A DNA stretch of 64,000 nt, from positions 226,705-290,704 of the forward strand of contig CAWVJY010000008.1 of assembly GCA_963929915.1 (NCBI GenBank), read 5' to 3'. The notes beneath the pieces are model-generated. The model did not search any database, was not told the DNA's origin, and saw only the letters and a program-made list of their open reading frames with translations. A program made the translations under genes and the position numbers. This document shows positions 4,477 through 38,114 of this stretch, one piece after another; the first letter of the stretch is position 1, and each line of letters opens with the position of its first letter. Source of the DNA: Bacillota bacterium. GTDB lineage: Bacteria; Bacillota; Clostridia; TANB77; CAG-508.

Positions 4477-4535
4477 AGAAAACAAGACTGTTCTAAAAAT
4501 AAATTTAGTCTGATTTTAGAATAGTCTTGTTTTCT
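4477..4535. terminator. long bidirectional hairpin terminator between pyrG and the convergent antitoxin gene
   Basis: AGAAAACAAGACTGTTCTAAAA (4477-4498) is the inverted complement of TTTTAGAATAGTCTTGTTTTCT (4514-4535), with a 15-nt loop. Confidence 0.6.
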
Positions 4536-5169: not shown

Positions 5170-5493
<324 letters not shown>

Positions 5494-19888: not shown

Positions 19889-19960
19889 AATATTACAATT
19901 ATATTACAAATATATTACAATAATATTAAATTATGATTACAAACACAAAAACTATTGACA
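19889..19960 (+). promoter_or_regulatory. phased ATTACAA repeat module plus TTGACA, upstream of sepF-divIVA
   Basis: AATATTACAATTATATTACAAATATATTACAATAATATTAAATTATGATTACAAACA then TTGACA. ATTACAA recurs at ~11-bp phasing. A 26-nt block is identical to the one at 37975-38030. Confidence 0.45.
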
Positions 19961-21032: not shown

Positions 21033-21047
21033 GAGAATGTAAAAAGT

Positions 21048-21076
21048 GGAGATAGCTTTTAAATGCTATCTCTATT
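21048..21076 (+). terminator. terminator after divIVA
   Basis: GGAGATAGC-TTTTAAAT-GCTATCTC hairpin followed by a T tract. Confidence 0.6.
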
Positions 21077-21091
21077 TTTAGCTATTATAAT

Positions 21092-21272
21092 ATTCAAAGT
21101 AAATATATTACAACGTTTGACCTTGGTGTCGCAATTTCCTATATTGTGCAAGAAAATCTACGATTTTCTGCACATACTAGCATGAAAATTGCTCCAATTC
21201 GCACTTCGTGGCACAGCCACTCCGTTTGGTCGCTTACGCGGTCTACACTTTTGTAATATATTTACTTTGAAT
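21092..21272. repeat. 181-bp palindromic intergenic element with 21-bp terminal inverted repeats and a GC-rich core related to the ERIC-like elements
   Basis: ATTCAAAGTAAATATATTACA ... TGTAATATATTTACTTTGAAT. The core (...CGTGGCACAGCCACTCCGTTTGGTCGCTTACGCGG) resembles the core of the 37836 and 53645 elements (...CGAACAGCTGTCACAATGGTCGCCCACGCAAGG). GC is much higher than the surroundings. Confidence 0.5.
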
Positions 21273-21338
21273 AAATTGCTTAGTACTAAAATTCATTGAA
21301 AAAATTACTTTACTTTTACAAATACTTGTTATATAATA

Positions 21339-21420
21339 CAACTAGAAAAATATTACAATTATTTAACATTATTACAATTGCATTAAGAAAATATTACAAT
21401 TGTGTTAAAAATATTGACAT
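21339..21420 (+). promoter_or_regulatory. second ATTACAA repeat module plus TTGACA, upstream of rsmD
   Basis: AATATTACAATTATTTAACATTATTACAATTGCATTAAGAAAATATTACAATTGTGTTAAAAATATTGACA. Confidence 0.4.
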
Positions 21421-25138: not shown

Positions 25139-26692
25139 ATGGATAAAAAGGAAAAAATACTTAAAAAGCTTCATATAACAGATTATACAAATCGCTTAGA
25201 GAAGGTTTTGGAAAAAAAGAAATTTTCTTTCGATACCAAAAATCTTCTTTTAAGCATGTTCTATAAAATAGAAAATGGATATCAAGATTATCAAAAAACA
25301 AAAGTACAAGTAGAAAATAAAGAAGATTTTTTTGAAAAAATACTCCAAATCATTGATAAAAAATGTGAAGAAATTATTACCACCAAAGATGTTTTAGTAG
25401 ATGAAAAAAAGCAAAAAGTAGATTTTATGGTAGATAAAGAAAAAGGAAAAATCGTAGCTTTAGGAAATGAATTTGTTTTATTAAACGCTATTTTAGTACT
25501 AGGAGAAAAAGAAATTTGTTTTCCAGAAGAAGAAAAGCTTTTACAAACACCATTTACAGCCTTTTTTAATTTAGGACTAAGAATGCATGAAACAGAAGTA
25601 ATTCGAGATTTTAATGGCTGGTCATGGGATATTGTTACAAAAGATATTACCAATATTCCTGTAAATCTTATCTTCCAAAGTTTTCTATATTTACTAGGGC
25701 AAGATTTTATGGCTCAATGGATAAATAATAAGAGTGAATTAGCAGATTATTTTATGTTAGCTGCTGAGAACATGAAACAAAACTTTGGAGAAGAAAGAAG
25801 TAAAAAAATAGTATCTCTATTTTGTAAATTAGTGATAGAGATTGTGGCAGAACAGGATGAAACACAAGCAACTTTATGGAAAAAGTTAAAAAAGGAAAAT
25901 AAAATAGAATTAGAAAAATTAAGTAATAAGCCAAAATTTCTAGAAGAAATTACCAAAGAAAAAAAGGAAATCACCAAAAAAATTGAAAAAATTGATAAAA
26001 TCATGAATAATAAGATTCTTTTACAACAGGAGTATGAAGAAAGAAATGAAAAATTACCTAATAAAGAGAAGATTTTTAGTATTAGGCATTTAACCAATCG
26101 TTTAGTAGAAGAAAGACAAGAACTAGTTGAGAAAATGAAACAAAGCAACAATTTAATTGATCCAAAAGAATATGTTGCTCGTAAGGAAAAAGTAGAAAAA
26201 AGGGTAGAGTTTTTAGATAGTTTAGATTTAGAAAATAAAACAGATAGAAGAGAAGCGTTATTACAACTATGTATACTATTCTTAGAATGTTTTGAAATCA
26301 AAACCATTAAAGCACAAAAAAAGGAAGAAGTCATTCATTATTTTTACGAATTAAGATATTATCGCTTTTTACCTTTTGAAGAAGAAGTGAAACTAAAAGA
26401 AATAGAAAAATTAAATCATATTTTTGAAAAAGAAATATCATTATTAATAGAAAAAGCACAAAAAATGGCAATTATTGATGAAGTTACGGCAGATAAAGAA
26501 ATTAATCAAAAAATCATTGGAAACTTATTTAATAGTAAATTAATTGATTTAAATCATTTAATTATTGAAACAAAAGTAGAAGAAGGCAAATTATATGCAG
26601 AATATTATGATACTAATATTTTAGAAAATGTTGTAGAAGTACAAAGCAATAGAACGGTGAAACTAAAGAAAAAGACAAAATTGTTTCTTTAG
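25139..26692 (+). CDS. hypothetical Lys/Glu-rich coiled-coil protein
   Basis: ORF with RBS AAAAGGTGG. The stop codon abuts REP copy A. Confidence 0.4.
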   Translation: MDKKEKILKKLHITDYTNRLEKVLEKKKFSFDTKNLLLSMFYKIENGYQDYQKTKVQVENKEDFFEKILQIIDKKCEEIITTKDVLVDEKKQKVDFMVDKEKGKIVALGNEFVLLNAILVLGEKEICFPEEEKLLQTPFTAFFNLGLRMHETEVIRDFNGWSWDIVTKDITNIPVNLIFQSFLYLLGQDFMAQWINNKSELADYFMLAAENMKQNFGEERSKKIVSLFCKLVIEIVAEQDETQATLWKKLKKENKIELEKLSNKPKFLEEITKEKKEITKKIEKIDKIMNNKILLQQEYEERNEKLPNKEKIFSIRHLTNRLVEERQELVEKMKQSNNLIDPKEYVARKEKVEKRVEFLDSLDLENKTDRREALLQLCILFLECFEIKTIKAQKKEEVIHYFYELRYYRFLPFEEEVKLKEIEKLNHIFEKEISLLIEKAQKMAIIDEVTADKEINQKIIGNLFNSKLIDLNHLIIETKVEEGKLYAEYYDTNILENVVEVQSNRTVKLKKKTKLFL

Positions 26693-26733
26693 GGACGGTT
26701 CTCAGTGGCCCCATTTGGGGTCACTTGGGACAC
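26692..26733 (+). repeat. REP element copy A
   Basis: GGGACGGTTCTCAGTGGCCCCATTTGGGGTCACTTGGGACAC, with internal hairpin GGCCCC-ATTT-GGGGTC. Confidence 0.8.
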
Positions 26734-26836
26734 TTCATTAAAAAGAGAAAGATTAAAAATTATTACTATTAACCAAAGACCAAAATATAAAATATAATAC
26801 AAATTATAATTTTTTAGGAGAGGATTGAAATTAAAT

Positions 26837-28605: not shown

Positions 28606-30585
28606 ATGAAAAATAAATATTATAATAATGCTATTATTGGGGGAAAAAACATTACAGCAAGTTATAGTAAAACAGGAGAATTGTTAAGGGTTATGTATCC
28701 AAATCCAGATTTTAGAAGTTGGATAGATGAATTTTTAACTGGTGTTAAAATTAATGATTCTGGAATGATTTATTTACATGAAGATTGCAATAATCAATAT
28801 CATCAATATTATACTGAAAATACCAATATTTTAAAAACTGAAATTTTAAATACCTATTTTCAATTACAAATTAAGCAAACCGATTTTGCCTTACTAAAAA
28901 ATAGCATATTGGTAAAAAAGTATGAATTTGAAAACAAAAATAATATTGATTTAAAAGTAAATTTTTTAGTACATAGTAAACTCTTATCAGATACCAATAA
29001 TATGGTAGGAAGTGAAGTAAAATATAATACACTAATTCAATATTGCCACGACTATTGTCTTTACCTTTTTTCACCATCTTCTTTATTAAGTTATCAATTA
29101 AATGATACTAAAGAAAATATTGGAAGTGGAGAAATTTATGATAAAGACTATATAGGTATGTCTTGTGATTCTAGTATTAGTTATGATATTGGAATTCTAA
29201 AACCAGGAGAAAAGAAAGAATTAGTGCTTTATTTGTATTTTAAAAATAATACGACAGCAGATATAGGAACAGAAAAAATAAGTAGTAAACAATTAGAAGA
29301 ACAGTTACTAAAAGAAATAGCCGAAATAAAAAAGATAGATGTACAAAAAGAAGAACAAGATGTAGAAAAATACTGGAAAAAATATGTAAAAGAACATTTA
29401 ACCATTCCTTTAAAACCAGAAACAAATACTTTTCATAAAAAATGGAACCAAATTTATCAAAGAAGCATTTTATTATTTCCTTTATTAATCAACCAAGAAA
29501 CAGGGGGAATTAGTGCAACTGTAGAAGTTGATGAAAATATGACACAATGTGGAAGATATGCCTATTGCTGGCCAAGAGATGCAGTATGGATTACCAAAGC
29601 ATTAGATTTGCTAAAAATGACAAAGGAAACGGAAAAATTTTATAAAATCTTCTGCAAAGAAACCCAAAGTAAAAATGGAATGTGGGAACAAAGATTTTAT
29701 ACAGATGGAAAATTAGCACCTTGTTGGGGATATCAAATTGATGAAACAGCCAGTGTTATTTATGGAGTTTATGAACATTATAAGGTAGTAAAAGATGCTA
29801 AATTTTTAAAAGACACTTATAAAATGTGTGAAAATGCTGCAAAGTTTTTAGGAATTTATTTAGATAATGTGTTAGGCACAAAAGATGAATCAGATGTGGT
29901 AAAAAAAGAAATAGAAGAAACTTACCATACAGAGGGAAGAAATAAATTGCCAGTTAGTTATGATTTATGGGAAATGCATGAAGGAGTACATTTATATTCC
30001 TTATCTGCTATTTATGCAGCCTTTGAAGCAATGAAACAAATTCATATTGTTTTAAAACCAAGTTATGAACAAAATAATCGACTAAAAGTAGAAGCAATGA
30101 ACAAACTAGAAGCCAAAATGATAAAATATCAGGAAGAAATTAAAAAGTATATACTTGCCAACTTATATGACGAAAACACTAAAACTTTTTCTAGAAACTT
30201 AAATGATAATCGTACAGATATTAGTGAACTTGGAATGATAGTACCATTTGCTTTGTTTTCTGCAAAAGAAAAAAAGGTACAAAATACTATTGAAAAAATC
30301 AATATGACATTAAGAACTTATACAGGAGGATACTTAAGATTCGAGCAAGATCATTACCGTGGTGGAACAAGTCCATGGCCAATAGCTACTTTATGGATGG
30401 CAATGTACTATCAGAAGGCTGGAGAAAGAAAAAAAGCAAAAGAATGTATCGAATTTGTTGTAAATTCTGCCAATGAACACGGCTTACTAGGTGAGCAAGT
30501 AGACAACCAAACTATGCAGCCGAATTGGGCAATTGGCTTACGGATGGGCCCATGCTATGTTTGTTTTGGGGACGGTTCTCACTGA
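28606..30585 (+). CDS. glycoside hydrolase family 15-like protein (glucoamylase/glucodextranase fold)
   Basis: CWPRDAVW and DLWEM acid/base-region motifs of GH15. The last 6 codons and the stop lie inside REP copy B. Confidence 0.6.
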   Translation: MKNKYYNNAIIGGKNITASYSKTGELLRVMYPNPDFRSWIDEFLTGVKINDSGMIYLHEDCNNQYHQYYTENTNILKTEILNTYFQLQIKQTDFALLKNSILVKKYEFENKNNIDLKVNFLVHSKLLSDTNNMVGSEVKYNTLIQYCHDYCLYLFSPSSLLSYQLNDTKENIGSGEIYDKDYIGMSCDSSISYDIGILKPGEKKELVLYLYFKNNTTADIGTEKISSKQLEEQLLKEIAEIKKIDVQKEEQDVEKYWKKYVKEHLTIPLKPETNTFHKKWNQIYQRSILLFPLLINQETGGISATVEVDENMTQCGRYAYCWPRDAVWITKALDLLKMTKETEKFYKIFCKETQSKNGMWEQRFYTDGKLAPCWGYQIDETASVIYGVYEHYKVVKDAKFLKDTYKMCENAAKFLGIYLDNVLGTKDESDVVKKEIEETYHTEGRNKLPVSYDLWEMHEGVHLYSLSAIYAAFEAMKQIHIVLKPSYEQNNRLKVEAMNKLEAKMIKYQEEIKKYILANLYDENTKTFSRNLNDNRTDISELGMIVPFALFSAKEKKVQNTIEKINMTLRTYTGGYLRFEQDHYRGGTSPWPIATLWMAMYYQKAGERKKAKECIEFVVNSANEHGLLGEQVDNQTMQPNWAIGLRMGPCYVCFGDGSH

Positions 30586-30610
30586 CCCCTAATGGGGCCA
30601 CTTGGGACAC
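30568..30610 (+). repeat. REP element copy B
   Basis: GGGGACGGTTCTCACTGACCCCTAATGGGGCCACTTGGGACAC. Confidence 0.8.
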
Positions 30611-30753
30611 ATCATATCATCTGAATTAACTCAAATGAAAAAAGAATCATAAATAATTTTAACAAGTACTTGCAAAATTATAAAAAATATGAGAAGATGT
30701 AAAAGAGAGAGAATTATAAAAAAGAGGGGCACTATCGGAGAAAGGAGGCAATT

Positions 30754-31571: not shown

Positions 31572-31598
31572 TTTGAATAGATTGGAGGAAATGGAGAA

Positions 31599-31641
31599 GT
31601 GTCCCAACTGACCCCTTTTGGGGTCACTGAGAACCGTCCCC
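31599..31641 (-). repeat. REP element copy C (inverted orientation)
   Basis: GTGTCCCAACTGACCCCTTTTGGGGTCACTGAGAACCGTCCCC is the rc of the copy A/B consensus. Ends 7 nt before the radA ATG. Confidence 0.8.
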
Positions 31642-31648
31642 AGAAAAC

Positions 31649-33062
31649 ATGAAAGCAAAAACAATTTTTGTATGTAGTAATTGTGGATATGAATCACCAA
31701 AATGGCTAGGAAAATGCCCAGGTTGTAATGAGTGGAATAGTTTTTATGAAGAGAAATTAGCTATGCAAACAGGTTCAGGAAAACAGACAGAAAAGAAAGT
31801 AGTTACTCCTAAATCATTAAATGAAGTAGTAGGAAAAGATGCTATTCGTATCCACACTGGAATTGGAGAATTAGATAGAGTTCTAGGGGGAGGTTTAGTA
31901 AAAGGTTCTTTAGTATTAGTAGGAGGAGAACCTGGAATTGGTAAATCTTACTCTTATTTGGAACTTTGCGATAAAATGCAGGCAGAAGGAAAAGTTCTTT
32001 ATGTTTCAGGAGAAGAGTCTGCTGAACAAATAAAATTAAGGCAGATCGACTTGGAATCCACAATGACGACATTTTATTTTTAGGAGAAACTGATATTTCA
32101 CTTATAGAAAATACAATATTAGAATTAAAACCAAAATTAGTTATTATTGATTCTATTCAAACAATGTATTCTGAAGATATTTCTTCGGCGGCAGGAACAG
32201 TAAGCCAAGTTCGCGAGATTACAGCTCGTATTATGCGTATTTGCAAAGGAAATGAAATTACTACTATTATTATTGGTCATGTAACAAAAGAAGGAAATAT
32301 TGCAGGACCTAGAGTTTTAGAACATATGGTAGATACTGTACTTTATCTAGAAGGCGAAAGGTATTTTTCTTATCGAGTTTTGCGTGGCGTTAAAAATCGT
32401 TTTGGGCTCTACCAACGAAGTAGGGATGTTTGAAATGCAAAATGAGGGAATGGTAGAAATAACAAATCCTTCTTCTGTATTAATTTCAGAAAGGGAGGAT
32501 AATCCTTCAGGTTCTGTTATTATTGCAAGTATGGAGGGAACTAGACCTTTGTTAATAGAATTACAGGCATTAACGACACCGACTGTATTTGGTTTTCCGC
32601 GTAGAACAGCCAATGGAATTGATTATAACAGGCTTACTTTGTTAGTTGCAGTACTAGAAAAAAGGGCTGGACTTGCATTAAGTTCACAAGATGTGTATTT
32701 AAATGTAGTAAGTGGAATCAGAATTGTAGAACCTGCTGCAGACCTAGGCATGATTTTAGCTTGTTGTTCTAGTTTTAAAAATACTAGTATTCCTAAAAGT
32801 ACAGTTGTTATTGGAGAAGTACGGATTAACAGGAGAGGTAAGAGCAGTAAATTTAATAGAAAAAAGATTAAAAGAAGCGGAAAAATTAGGATTTAAAACT
32901 TGTATTATACCAGAAAGTAATAAAAAACTATTGAAAGATAAGTACAAGTTAGATATAATAGGGGTTAGAAATGTAAATGAGGCGATGAAAAGTAGTGGGG
33001 CTAAAGTAAAAGTTAAGAAATTTAGTGAAGTGTCCCAAGTGGCCCCATTTGGGGCTACATAG
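31649..33062 (+). pseudogene. radA: DNA repair protein RadA/Sms, broken into 4 frames (may be indel errors)
   Basis: C4 zinc finger (CSNCGYESPKWLGKCPGCNEW), Walker A GEPGIGKS, KNRFG motif, Lon-like C-domain. Pieces at 31649-32083, 32164-32433, 32384-32896 and 32805-33062. The 3' end runs into REP copy D. Confidence 0.8.
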
Positions 33063-33071
33063 AACCGTCCC
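33030..33071 (-). repeat. REP element copy D (inverted orientation)
   Basis: GTGTCCCAAGTGGCCCCATTTGGGGCTACATAGAACCGTCCC. Confidence 0.8.
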
Positions 33072-33087
33072 TAGAAAGGAAAATGTG

Positions 33088-37354: not shown

Positions 37355-37780
37355 ATGAATACTTTATTAATATTTTTTGCCCTTCCTATAGCAACCATTA
37401 TTTTAGCCATTGTATTACAAAAAATATTAAAATGTGCATTATTAGTAGCAGCAACATTTTTTGCAATTTATTTAATTGTAACTTTTGCCGCTTTTGATGC
37501 TAGTTTTTTAGTCTTTGCTATTGCATATACCATTTTGGCCTATATTACGGCGGTAATAACCAAAATTATTTGCCATTGTTTAGAAATTTGGAGACAGCAA
37601 TGTAATTGTAATAATACTGGAAATGCAAGAACACAAAATACTCCAATTACCATTAATAATACAAGTCCTTGTACCAGTATTAATCTGGCAAGCGGAGCTA
37701 ATTTGTTAACAGATACAAATCAAACAACTCAAACAAGAAGAAATCATAATTGTTGCTGGAATTGTTCACGTAGAGGGTAA
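37355..37780 (+). CDS. membrane protein with Cys/Asn/Thr-rich low-complexity C-terminal tail
   Basis: Three TM helices, then CNCNNTGNARTQNTPITINNTSPCTS...NHNCCWNCSRRG. Confidence 0.4.
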   Translation: MNTLLIFFALPIATIILAIVLQKILKCALLVAATFFAIYLIVTFAAFDASFLVFAIAYTILAYITAVITKIICHCLEIWRQQCNCNNTGNARTQNTPITINNTSPCTSINLASGANLLTDTNQTTQTRRNHNCCWNCSRRG

Positions 37781-37835
37781 ACATAAGTTTTTATTTTTAC
37801 ATGCATAATATGATTCTAAAATTTATTTTATAAAA

Positions 37836-37970
37836 GGAATAGAATTGTCTTTTTCAATTTTTAAAACCTTTCCCCTTTTGGACATCTGTAACTCGGCGTA
37901 AACGCCTCGAACAGCTGTCACAATGGTCGCCCACGCAAGGCTTAAAAATTTCAAAAGACAATTCTATTCC
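37836..37970. repeat. ERIC-like 135-bp imperfect palindrome, copy 1
   Basis: GGAATAGAATTGTCTTTTTCAATTTTT ... AAAAATTTCAAAAGACAATTCTATTCC termini. GC-rich core CTCGGCGTAAACGCCTCGAACAGCTGTCACAATGGTCGCCCACGCAAGGC is ~95% identical to the copy at 53645-53779. Confidence 0.6.
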
Positions 37971-37974
37971 TTTT

Positions 37975-38030
37975 ATATTTAATACTTTATTACAATTATA
38001 TTACAAATATATTAAATTTATATTACAAAC
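37975..38030 (+). promoter_or_regulatory. third ATTACAA repeat module, upstream of the Tad-like cluster
   Basis: TTATTACAATTATATTACAAATATATTAAATTTATATTACAAACAAAG. Shares the 26-nt block ATTACAATTATATTACAAATATATTA with the sepF upstream module. Confidence 0.45.
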
Positions 38031-38114
38031 AAAGAACTTATTGTTTTTAGACGAAAAATGTTGTACAATAAATTAAATGATGATATTTTGTAAATTTATA
38101 AGGAGGAACAAGCA

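Follow-up and report, generated by a model that had tools for sequence, protein, structure and literature searches.

A family of interspersed hairpin repeats with covarying arms and a near-invariant core at gene 3' ends in uncultured human-gut Clostridia

Long palindromes whose two arms change in step raise the question of what keeps the arms paired. We met this question in a 64,000-nucleotide stretch of clostridial DNA (the window, 29% G+C), which carries two 135-bp imperfect palindromes, c1 and c2. Their outer left arms, GGAATAGAATTG in c1 and GTATTAGGATTG in c2, differ at three positions, and the right arms, CAATTCTATTCC (c1) and CAATCCTAATAC (c2), are the exact reverse complements, so that all three differences are compensated. 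A sequence-only reading of the window had placed the palindromes at 37836-37970 and 53645-53779, had noted the three matched changes, and had concluded that the long hairpin is what is conserved. The coordinates and the three compensations were borne out, and a fourth compensated difference lies in the small tip hairpin (GGCG-TAAA-CGCC vs GGCA-TAAA-TGCC). The observation is real and statistically strong, and it holds family-wide. The parts of the two copies are as follows, with the strand where one applies.

37836-37970, + strand: c1, 135-bp imperfect palindrome (inner hairpin module); covariance model 170.8 bits, fold z = -9.5
37829-37864: c1 left arm with A-tract, pairing with 37942-37977; 36 nt, 94% complementary, 77 nt apart
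37942-37977: c1 right arm with T-tract (TTTTAT), the partner of 37829-37864 by inverted-repeat search
37869-37938, + strand: c1 asymmetric GC-rich core (alignment columns 40-109); mean column identity 0.97
37812-37835, + strand: remnant of the left arm of an outer hairpin at c1, GATTCTAAAAT, with AT-rich spacer AATTTATTTTATAAAA; left flank the same as in c2, Y motif on the left
53645-53779, + strand: c2, 135-bp imperfect palindrome; covariance model 159.3 bits
53678-53747, + strand: c2 asymmetric core, from the alignment of family copies
53601-53621: left arm of the c2 outer terminator-like hairpin, AAATAAGAAACTGTTCTAAAA; 21 nt, 95% complementary to 53800-53820
53800-53820: right arm of the c2 outer hairpin, TTTTAGGACAGTTTCTTATTT; adjoins the murC stop codon
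53622-53644, + strand: AT-rich spacer from the c2 outer left arm to c2; has the reverse complement of the Y motif, ATAAATTTA
53780-53799, + strand: AT-rich spacer from c2 to the outer right arm, from the spacer comparison among copies

The DUF2651 gene at 37355-37780 lies on the upstream side of c1, and a pilus-operon gene (38115) begins 145 nt downstream. The c1 core folds into a middle helix (37881-37889/37911-37919) and a tip helix (37892-37898/37903-37909). Of the outer hairpin, c1 retains the left remnant only, the right arm being absent. c2 lies between the convergent genes 52444-53601 (+) and 53819-55210 (-, murC), and its orthologue in a metagenome-assembled genome (MAG locus L015) shows 1 difference. 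The left arm of its outer hairpin begins at the upstream gene's stop codon, and the composite of inner and outer hairpins occupies the full space from stop codon to stop codon. With the A/T flanks included, the arms measure 36 nt at 94% complementarity in c1 and 32 nt at 91% in c2, longer than first described. The two copies are 93.7% identical over 127 nt by BLAST, and core blocks of 24 and 30 nt occur exactly twice each in the window and never in shuffles. Folding of both strands of both copies against dinucleotide shuffles gave z = -8.8 to -9.5. A covariance model run with filters off finds c1 and c2 and nothing else in the window.

The surroundings of c1 hold other repeats. TATTACAA repeats with an 11-bp period lie upstream of genes at 19891-19939, 21370-21407 and 37977-38036, and may be operator sites; those beside c1 are kept in L115, a strain lacking c1, and are therefore part of the pilus operon's own upstream region. 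The pilus locus that follows c1 also contains, at 45034-47480, three to four short ORFs with paralogous starts (MENASKALIIAG...) and pilin-like N-termini.

Had c1 and c2 been the sole copies, a local duplication might have explained them, as the sequence-only reading allowed; one MAG alone has at least 19 copies. When species-representative genomes were scanned with a core 19-mer, the MAG 'uncultured Clostridium sp. MGYG-HGUT-04078' showed 19 exact matches on its contigs and two other Clostridia MAGs 1 copy each, while 3 further matches were due to chance; the first MAG is ~96% identical to the window where the two overlap. Metagenomes were scanned with an 18-mer from the opposite side of the core. 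These scans of human-gut Clostridia MAGs and metagenomes, plus neighbouring-gene look-ups, brought the family to 49 copies, 41 of them distinct and nearly all from human-gut assemblies. A genome of this lineage of uncultured human-gut Clostridia carries about 20-25 copies.

This is an undescribed repeat family, made up of non-coding interspersed hairpin repeats. None of 4,227 Rfam covariance models matched it at the gathering threshold, where the window yielded only two tRNAs, and at E = 10 the region around c1 still gave no family (best E = 0.89, 16 bits). BLAST against plasmid and phage sequences found no match to the family; of two viral-contig scans, one gave only an unrelated enterobacterial prophage gene and the other nothing. 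Covariance-model and nhmmer searches revealed no divergent or decayed copies, nhmmer with filters off across 244 kb returning full-length copies only (112-130 bits) and no relics. Neither a solo arm nor a full-length mobile element with the family's ends was seen in ~700 kb of related DNA, and the searches found no autonomous partner element. Peptide coding was rejected, as short ORFs across the core are not conserved among copies when read by eye.

Each unit runs from an A-tract to a T-tract, and between them imperfect arms of 33-40 bp enclose an asymmetric, GC-rich core of 70 nt in which two small helices form. The copies share an arm consensus, GTATTAGAAT, with the inner-arm sequence TGTCTTTTTCAATTTTTAAAACC, and the flanks, A4 at one end and T4 at the opposite end, pair in 29-33 of 38 copies. 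At about half of the loci the palindrome sits within a second inverted repeat with the consensus AATAAGAAGCTGTCCTAAAA ... TTTTAGGACAGCTTCTTATT, whose outer part differs among loci yet stays complementary. The AT-rich spacers between the inner and outer hairpins are conserved and differ from each other, so the orientation of the inner palindrome can be read against them; both orientations exist, with the Y motif on the right in ~17 loci and on the left in ~6, including c1 and c2. The outer hairpin was also found once on its own in 219 kb.

4477-4535: stand-alone outer hairpin without inner palindrome; inner stem CTGTTCTAAAA/TTTTAGAATAG as in the nested outer hairpins

Its loop, ATAAATTTAGTCTGA, is identical to the right-hand spacer. 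We considered whether the variable arms are the stems of pre-existing terminators entered by a smaller element, and rejected this as a general rule because the arms share the consensus, because such an inner stem is missing from the outer hairpin that stands alone, because the empty murC junction in the related species L119 has no terminator at all, and because the c1 arms resemble the terminator of the empty allele in L115 only weakly (AGGAGT vs AGGAAT). Immediately to the left of one further copy (L016 7280-7346) a 19-nt unit, AGTATAGAATTGTAATARC, is repeated twice in tandem; it is similar both to the AGTATTAGAATTGTC of the element's arm and to the motif TATTACAATT.

Covariation was measured in an alignment of 38 distinct copies, on a structure with three helices (outer/inner arm, middle and tip). 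Standard pairs fill 87.7% of cells, and 29 of the 51 pairs have changed on both sides, so the differences in the further copies are not the uncompensated ones that would have spoken against a conserved hairpin. Cells changed on both sides number 137, compared with 33 +- 4 in column shuffles and 19-30 when the partners are slid by 1-3 columns. All three helices covary, and in the sense of a shared fold the hairpin is indeed what is conserved over the 38 copies. In the outer arms, 654 of 684 cells (95.6%) are Watson-Crick pairs, and one arm position is U-A in 20 copies, G-C in 12, A-U in 3 and C-G in 2. Eight copies have G-C, U-A or A-U in place of the T.C mismatch of the middle helix. Variants of the tip helix are GGCA/TGCC, GGCG/CGCC, GGAA/TTCC and a perfected CGAGGCA/TGCCTCG.

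The sequence itself is conserved in a different way, declining from the centre outwards over the same 38 copies, in mean column identity:

70-nt core: 0.97
inner arms: 0.90-0.94
outer 15 nt of each arm: about 0.80

Two adjacent arm mismatches are both unpaired in 30 copies and both paired in 8 (with five different dinucleotides), and never is one paired alone. At several loci the arms are perfected over 29-33 nt. The non-Watson-Crick cells include 20 A.C and 8 G.T, counts that come from partly redundant loci. Counted by eye at co-directional loci, the transcribed strand has the wobble in 3 cases and the opposite strand in 5; an excess of G.U on one strand would have spoken for RNA. The fold of the minus strand is ~10 kcal/mol more stable.

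The position of the copies relative to genes was counted at 25 distinct loci.

Between convergent genes: 10 of 25 loci
Between co-directional genes, sense: 10 of 25 loci
Between co-directional genes, antisense: 5 of 25 loci
Between divergent genes: 0 of 25 loci

The copies lie only at gene 3' ends. The palindromes had been described as sitting between a terminator and the next promoter. This fits the separate palindrome at 21092-21272, which follows a terminator-like hairpin at 21037-21084, but neither c1 nor c2, each of which is itself the sole terminator-like structure at its site: no other was found beside either copy, and no promoter signal at c1 or c2 or inside the core rose above shuffle expectation. 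A simple terminator scan does not call the element; its stem base is AT-rich and its T-tract short (TTTTAT). From position and shape alone, we infer a role as a bidirectional terminator or 3' hairpin.

Comparison of orthologous loci shows that the element comes and goes. At the c1 locus it is present in the window and in L036 and L037, while L115 and L117, two strains that share a 90%-identity TruA cluster with the window, have a plain terminator, AAATAGGAGTGTACTAAGATACTCCTATTTTTT. The alleles differ by a replacement of ~82 nt by ~182 nt, and neither a target-site duplication nor a clean insertion junction was seen between the c1 alleles. The murC junction that holds c2 is empty in L119, where the stop codons are 3 nt apart, and in another related species (L120) the murC/transglutaminase junction carries an unrelated palindromic element of ~200 nt (L120 2900-3130; L119 counterpart 2889-2893). 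Gene-end junctions in this clade appear to have been colonised repeatedly by different palindromic elements. With one close strain empty, and the junctions of other species empty or otherwise occupied, the element behaves like a mobile or exchangeable repeat.

Another locus, L118, was set aside as a cross-species orthologue, being a recombinant mosaic that is 99-100% identical around the element. Over L118 1513-4226 identity to the window is 67-79% for the first ~450 nt of murC and 99-100% for the remainder, including a c2-type element; the mosaic reflects either import by recombination or a chimeric contig. The edge of this locus holds a DDE_Tnp_1 transposase gene.

The element also turns over in place. 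At three orthologous loci (L056 vs L063/L102, L065 vs L085, L018 vs L082) the unit is reverse-complemented relative to its flanks, in L018 vs L082 with everything between the outer arms flipped. The arms must therefore recombine at the DNA level. Two pairs of cross-species orthologues, L018/L082 and L047/L050a, have flanking DNA that is only 79-89% identical, and differ respectively at 1/70 and 3/70 nt of the core, 4/36 and 9/36 of the inner arms, and 6/30 and 8/30 of the outer arms, the outer-arm differences all being compensated by inspection. The locus pair L031 and L090 has flanks that are 99.8% identical, with 4 nt differing inside the element, where L090 has the tip-loop variant of other loci. 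This points to conversion between copies.

What, then, keeps the arms paired? Selection on the fold and arm-to-arm copying both fit the complementarity of the arms, and they are not mutually exclusive. Fold selection is favoured because short helices covary, because specific mismatches are kept in 30 of 38 copies, and because the core is constrained across species. DNA-level copying is favoured because the inversions are direct evidence of recombination between the arms, because the arms are perfected over long stretches, and because adjacent mismatches are converted together or not at all. Template switching is known to perfect quasipalindromes and to conserve inverted repeats (PMC7202029, PMC5941160). 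As arm-to-arm copying gives the same pattern (PMC7202029, PMC5941160), covariation in a DNA inverted repeat is no proof of selection on RNA. The conserved internal mismatches argue against unrestrained homogenisation of the arms, and the wobble data (3 cases fit, 5 do not, by eye) give no positive support for RNA-level selection. The earlier conclusion of a structured RNA, an mRNA-stabilising stem-loop or a DNA cruciform is reasonable as far as conservation of a hairpin goes, but the data do not place that conservation at the RNA level.

The reading that best accounts for these observations, and to which we give an even chance, is that of an interspersed hairpin repeat like SPRITE, ERIC and bcr1, of mobile origin and now serving as a bidirectional terminator or 3' hairpin. 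The family would have spread into gene 3' ends as a mobile or recombinationally exchangeable element, and its position suggests that it supplies the flanking transcripts with a bidirectional intrinsic-terminator hairpin or a 3'-protective one. The outer arms would be free in sequence and bound only to pair, so that changes come in matched pairs. Selection on the fold would account for part of these, and DNA-level copying from arm to arm, by template switching or inverted-repeat recombination, probably contributes; the same process would flip the unit. The core and the specific inner-arm mismatches, which are nearly constant, may be recognised by sequence by some factor, which could be a protein or else the apparatus by which copies spread or are converted, and gene conversion between copies would help to hold the core constant. 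Since plain hairpin function would leave a near-invariant, asymmetric 70-nt core unexplained, we infer a putative sequence-specific partner for it.

Other explanations place the function elsewhere. One is that the repeat is a dedicated structured non-coding RNA or cis-regulatory RNA motif, with a functional core containing internal loops and arms that act as a P1-like closing stem under purifying selection. Covariation in three helices, the internal mismatches kept in most copies (30/38), cores that differ by 1-3/70 nt across species whose flanks are 79-89% identical, the absence of decayed copies from the 244 kb searched with nhmmer and very stable folds (z about -9, the minus strand the more stable by ~10 kcal/mol) are all as expected of such an RNA. 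However, the unit lies in both orientations relative to flanking genes (10 sense and 5 antisense co-directional loci) and flips at orthologous loci, where a sequence-specific RNA would be lost. A promoter signal is absent, ~25 copies per genome would be unusual for an RNA gene, no Rfam family was found even at E = 10, and no clear strand bias of G.U pairs is seen. We consider a dedicated RNA unlikely. An element acting purely as DNA, similar to REP/BIME/RIP or REPIN-RAYT repeats, would have a core that is a protein-binding site on duplex, hairpin or cruciform, and arms kept complementary by intramolecular recombination and template switching alone. It would accommodate the independence from orientation, the frequent flips, the perfected arms of 29-33 nt with their both-or-none conversion of adjacent mismatches, the documented effect of template switching on quasipalindromes (PMC7202029, PMC5941160), and the conservation of the core regardless of the transcribed strand. 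We identified no candidate binding protein or RAYT-like gene, though, and the mismatches kept in 30/38 copies imply that homogenisation is not free-running. The tip-helix repeats, which covary, are only 4-7 bp, too short for recombination, although template switching could act on them. A purely DNA-level explanation seems rather improbable.

A classical MITE, with terminal inverted repeats (TIRs) recognised by a transposase encoded elsewhere and arm differences that mark subfamilies, would likewise be multi-copy, non-coding, ~135 bp long and inverted at its ends. It would explain the presence/absence polymorphism at the c1 locus and at the murC junction, empty in L119, and the conserved inner arms (TGTC...GACA) could be its true TIRs. 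But the tips of a transposon are normally its most conserved part, and here the outermost 12-15 bp are the most variable. With a column identity of ~80% over the outer 15 nt, the termini vary too much for TIRs specified by a transposase, and the sequence-only reading was right to set aside a MITE with identical TIRs. A direct target-site duplication, like conserved termini a defining MITE feature, is also absent, as the flanks are A-tract/T-tract or locus-specific complements and stay inverted all the way to where conservation begins; ~700 kb of related DNA, plasmids and phages yielded neither a solo arm nor a full-length element; and orthologous copies persist across species. We regard a classical MITE as very unlikely. 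The least credible explanation, to our mind hardly tenable, is an inverton, a phase-variable switch flipped by a site-specific recombinase that might, for example, control the pilus operon downstream of c1. Inversions between strains or species do occur at three family loci, and at 50887-51034, and c1 does sit 145 nt upstream of a pilus-operon gene. Flipping a near-symmetric hairpin whose core lacks a promoter would nevertheless alter little, the copies between convergent genes (10/25 loci) have nothing to switch, and arms of 30-40 bp suffice for spontaneous inversion.

A bolder proposal, which we also think unlikely, is a hairpin module of new architecture and not mere tolerated junk, with free arms, an invariant 70-nt centre and fixed internal loops, maintained by a host or a symbiont and read by a dedicated protein on folded DNA or RNA. 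It would be comparable to RAYT-REPIN or integrase-attC with the conservation inverted, and the flips and nesting would be its life cycle.

Other palindromes in the window do not extend the family. The one at 21092-21272 had been credited with a related core, which amounts to a box matching at 13 of 15 nt; BLAST and the covariance model show no link to the family. A superfamily joining 21091-21273 and 50887-51034 to c1 was rejected, as they share just the short box GCGTnnGCGACCA and a similar layout and neither BLAST nor nhmmer links them. With the covariance model, 50887-51034 scores 29 bits, owed to its hairpin shape, and 21091-21273 is not reported at all. The latter has 23-nt perfect arms directly after the terminator-like hairpin at 21037-21084, is a singleton in the DNA examined, and resembles the c1 core in the short box TGGTCGCTTACGC alone. 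The palindrome at 50887-51034, with 25-nt perfect arms, is also a singleton in the DNA examined. Its counterpart in the 96%-identical MAG (L015 ~5257-5340) has a reverse-complemented centre and lacks the 64-nt AT-rich internal hairpin (a deletion between CTGT repeats), and a C to T substitution in one arm is matched by G to A in the other. A second multi-copy family consists of GC-rich imperfect palindromes of ~51 nt, GGGACGGTTCTCAGTGGCCCC-ATTT-GGGGTCACTTGGGACAC, with four in the window (26688-26738, 30565-30615, 31596-31646 and 33022-33072) and five in MAG loci (L017, L031, L034 and L035).

The family adds an undescribed repeat from a clade of uncultured gut Clostridia and is a clean natural case of stem covariation within a DNA inverted repeat. 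It carries a methodological warning: because the inversions show that the arms interact at the DNA level, a functional RNA does not follow directly from covariation of this kind. If the core is a recognition site, the family would open the way to a new pairing of repeat and protein in Firmicutes. In practice, such elements break short-read assemblies, may assemble in either orientation, and can pass for sRNA genes or invertons.

The class of repeat is itself known, from SPRITE, ERIC and bcr1, and this is not a new kind of system. The label ERIC-like, which the palindromes had been given, holds as an analogy only. ERIC/IRU elements are ~127 bp, intergenic, co-transcribed with their neighbours and able to affect mRNA stability, with TA-flanked TIRs and target-site duplications (PMC3184786). 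The present family is likewise an imperfect palindrome of similar size (135 bp, arms 32-36 nt), intergenic and at gene 3' ends, but it has variable ends, no target-site duplication and a host of another phylum. It had no match in 5,426 complete E. coli genomes (blastn, distant mode), nor to the ERIC2 primer sequence with up to 3 mismatches. The bcr1 repeat of the Bacillus cereus group (~155 bp) is transcribed, and compensatory base changes keep its double-stranded structure (PMC3184786). It too is an interspersed repeat of a Firmicute with compensatory changes, but has 5-bp direct-repeat flanks and behaves as a MITE, whereas the present family has no direct repeats; the Rfam search, the sole comparison made of their sequences, gave no relation. 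The REP/BIME, RIP and REPIN elements of proteobacteria persist for long and may have protein-binding roles (PMC3184786). Like the present family, they are palindromes at gene 3' ends and between convergent genes, composite or nested with conserved spacer motifs. In REP/REPIN, however, the arms are conserved and the spacer is free, while the present family has the reverse pattern, with conservation in the centre and freedom in the arms, and no RAYT gene was identified.

The closest known repeat in behaviour, compared by description, is the pneumococcal SPRITE. It has ~30 copies with AAAA/TTTT ends, half of them between convergent genes, no target-site duplication or partner IS, and a proposed co-option as terminator (PMC3049150). 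The two families share a Firmicute host, a copy number of this order (~30 per genome in SPRITE), a long duplex followed by T-rich sequence, and a position near 3' ends; the present one has the long stem with A- and T-tracts, with 10 of 25 loci convergent and 0 divergent. SPRITE itself measures ~105 bp, has a GC content of only 28% and forms a duplex of 18 bp, and it lacks a conserved GC-rich structured core. Homology in sequence is unlikely because the core of the present family is GC-rich. Nesting in a second hairpin, flips in orientation and strong stem covariation are all seen in the present family and are unreported for SPRITE.
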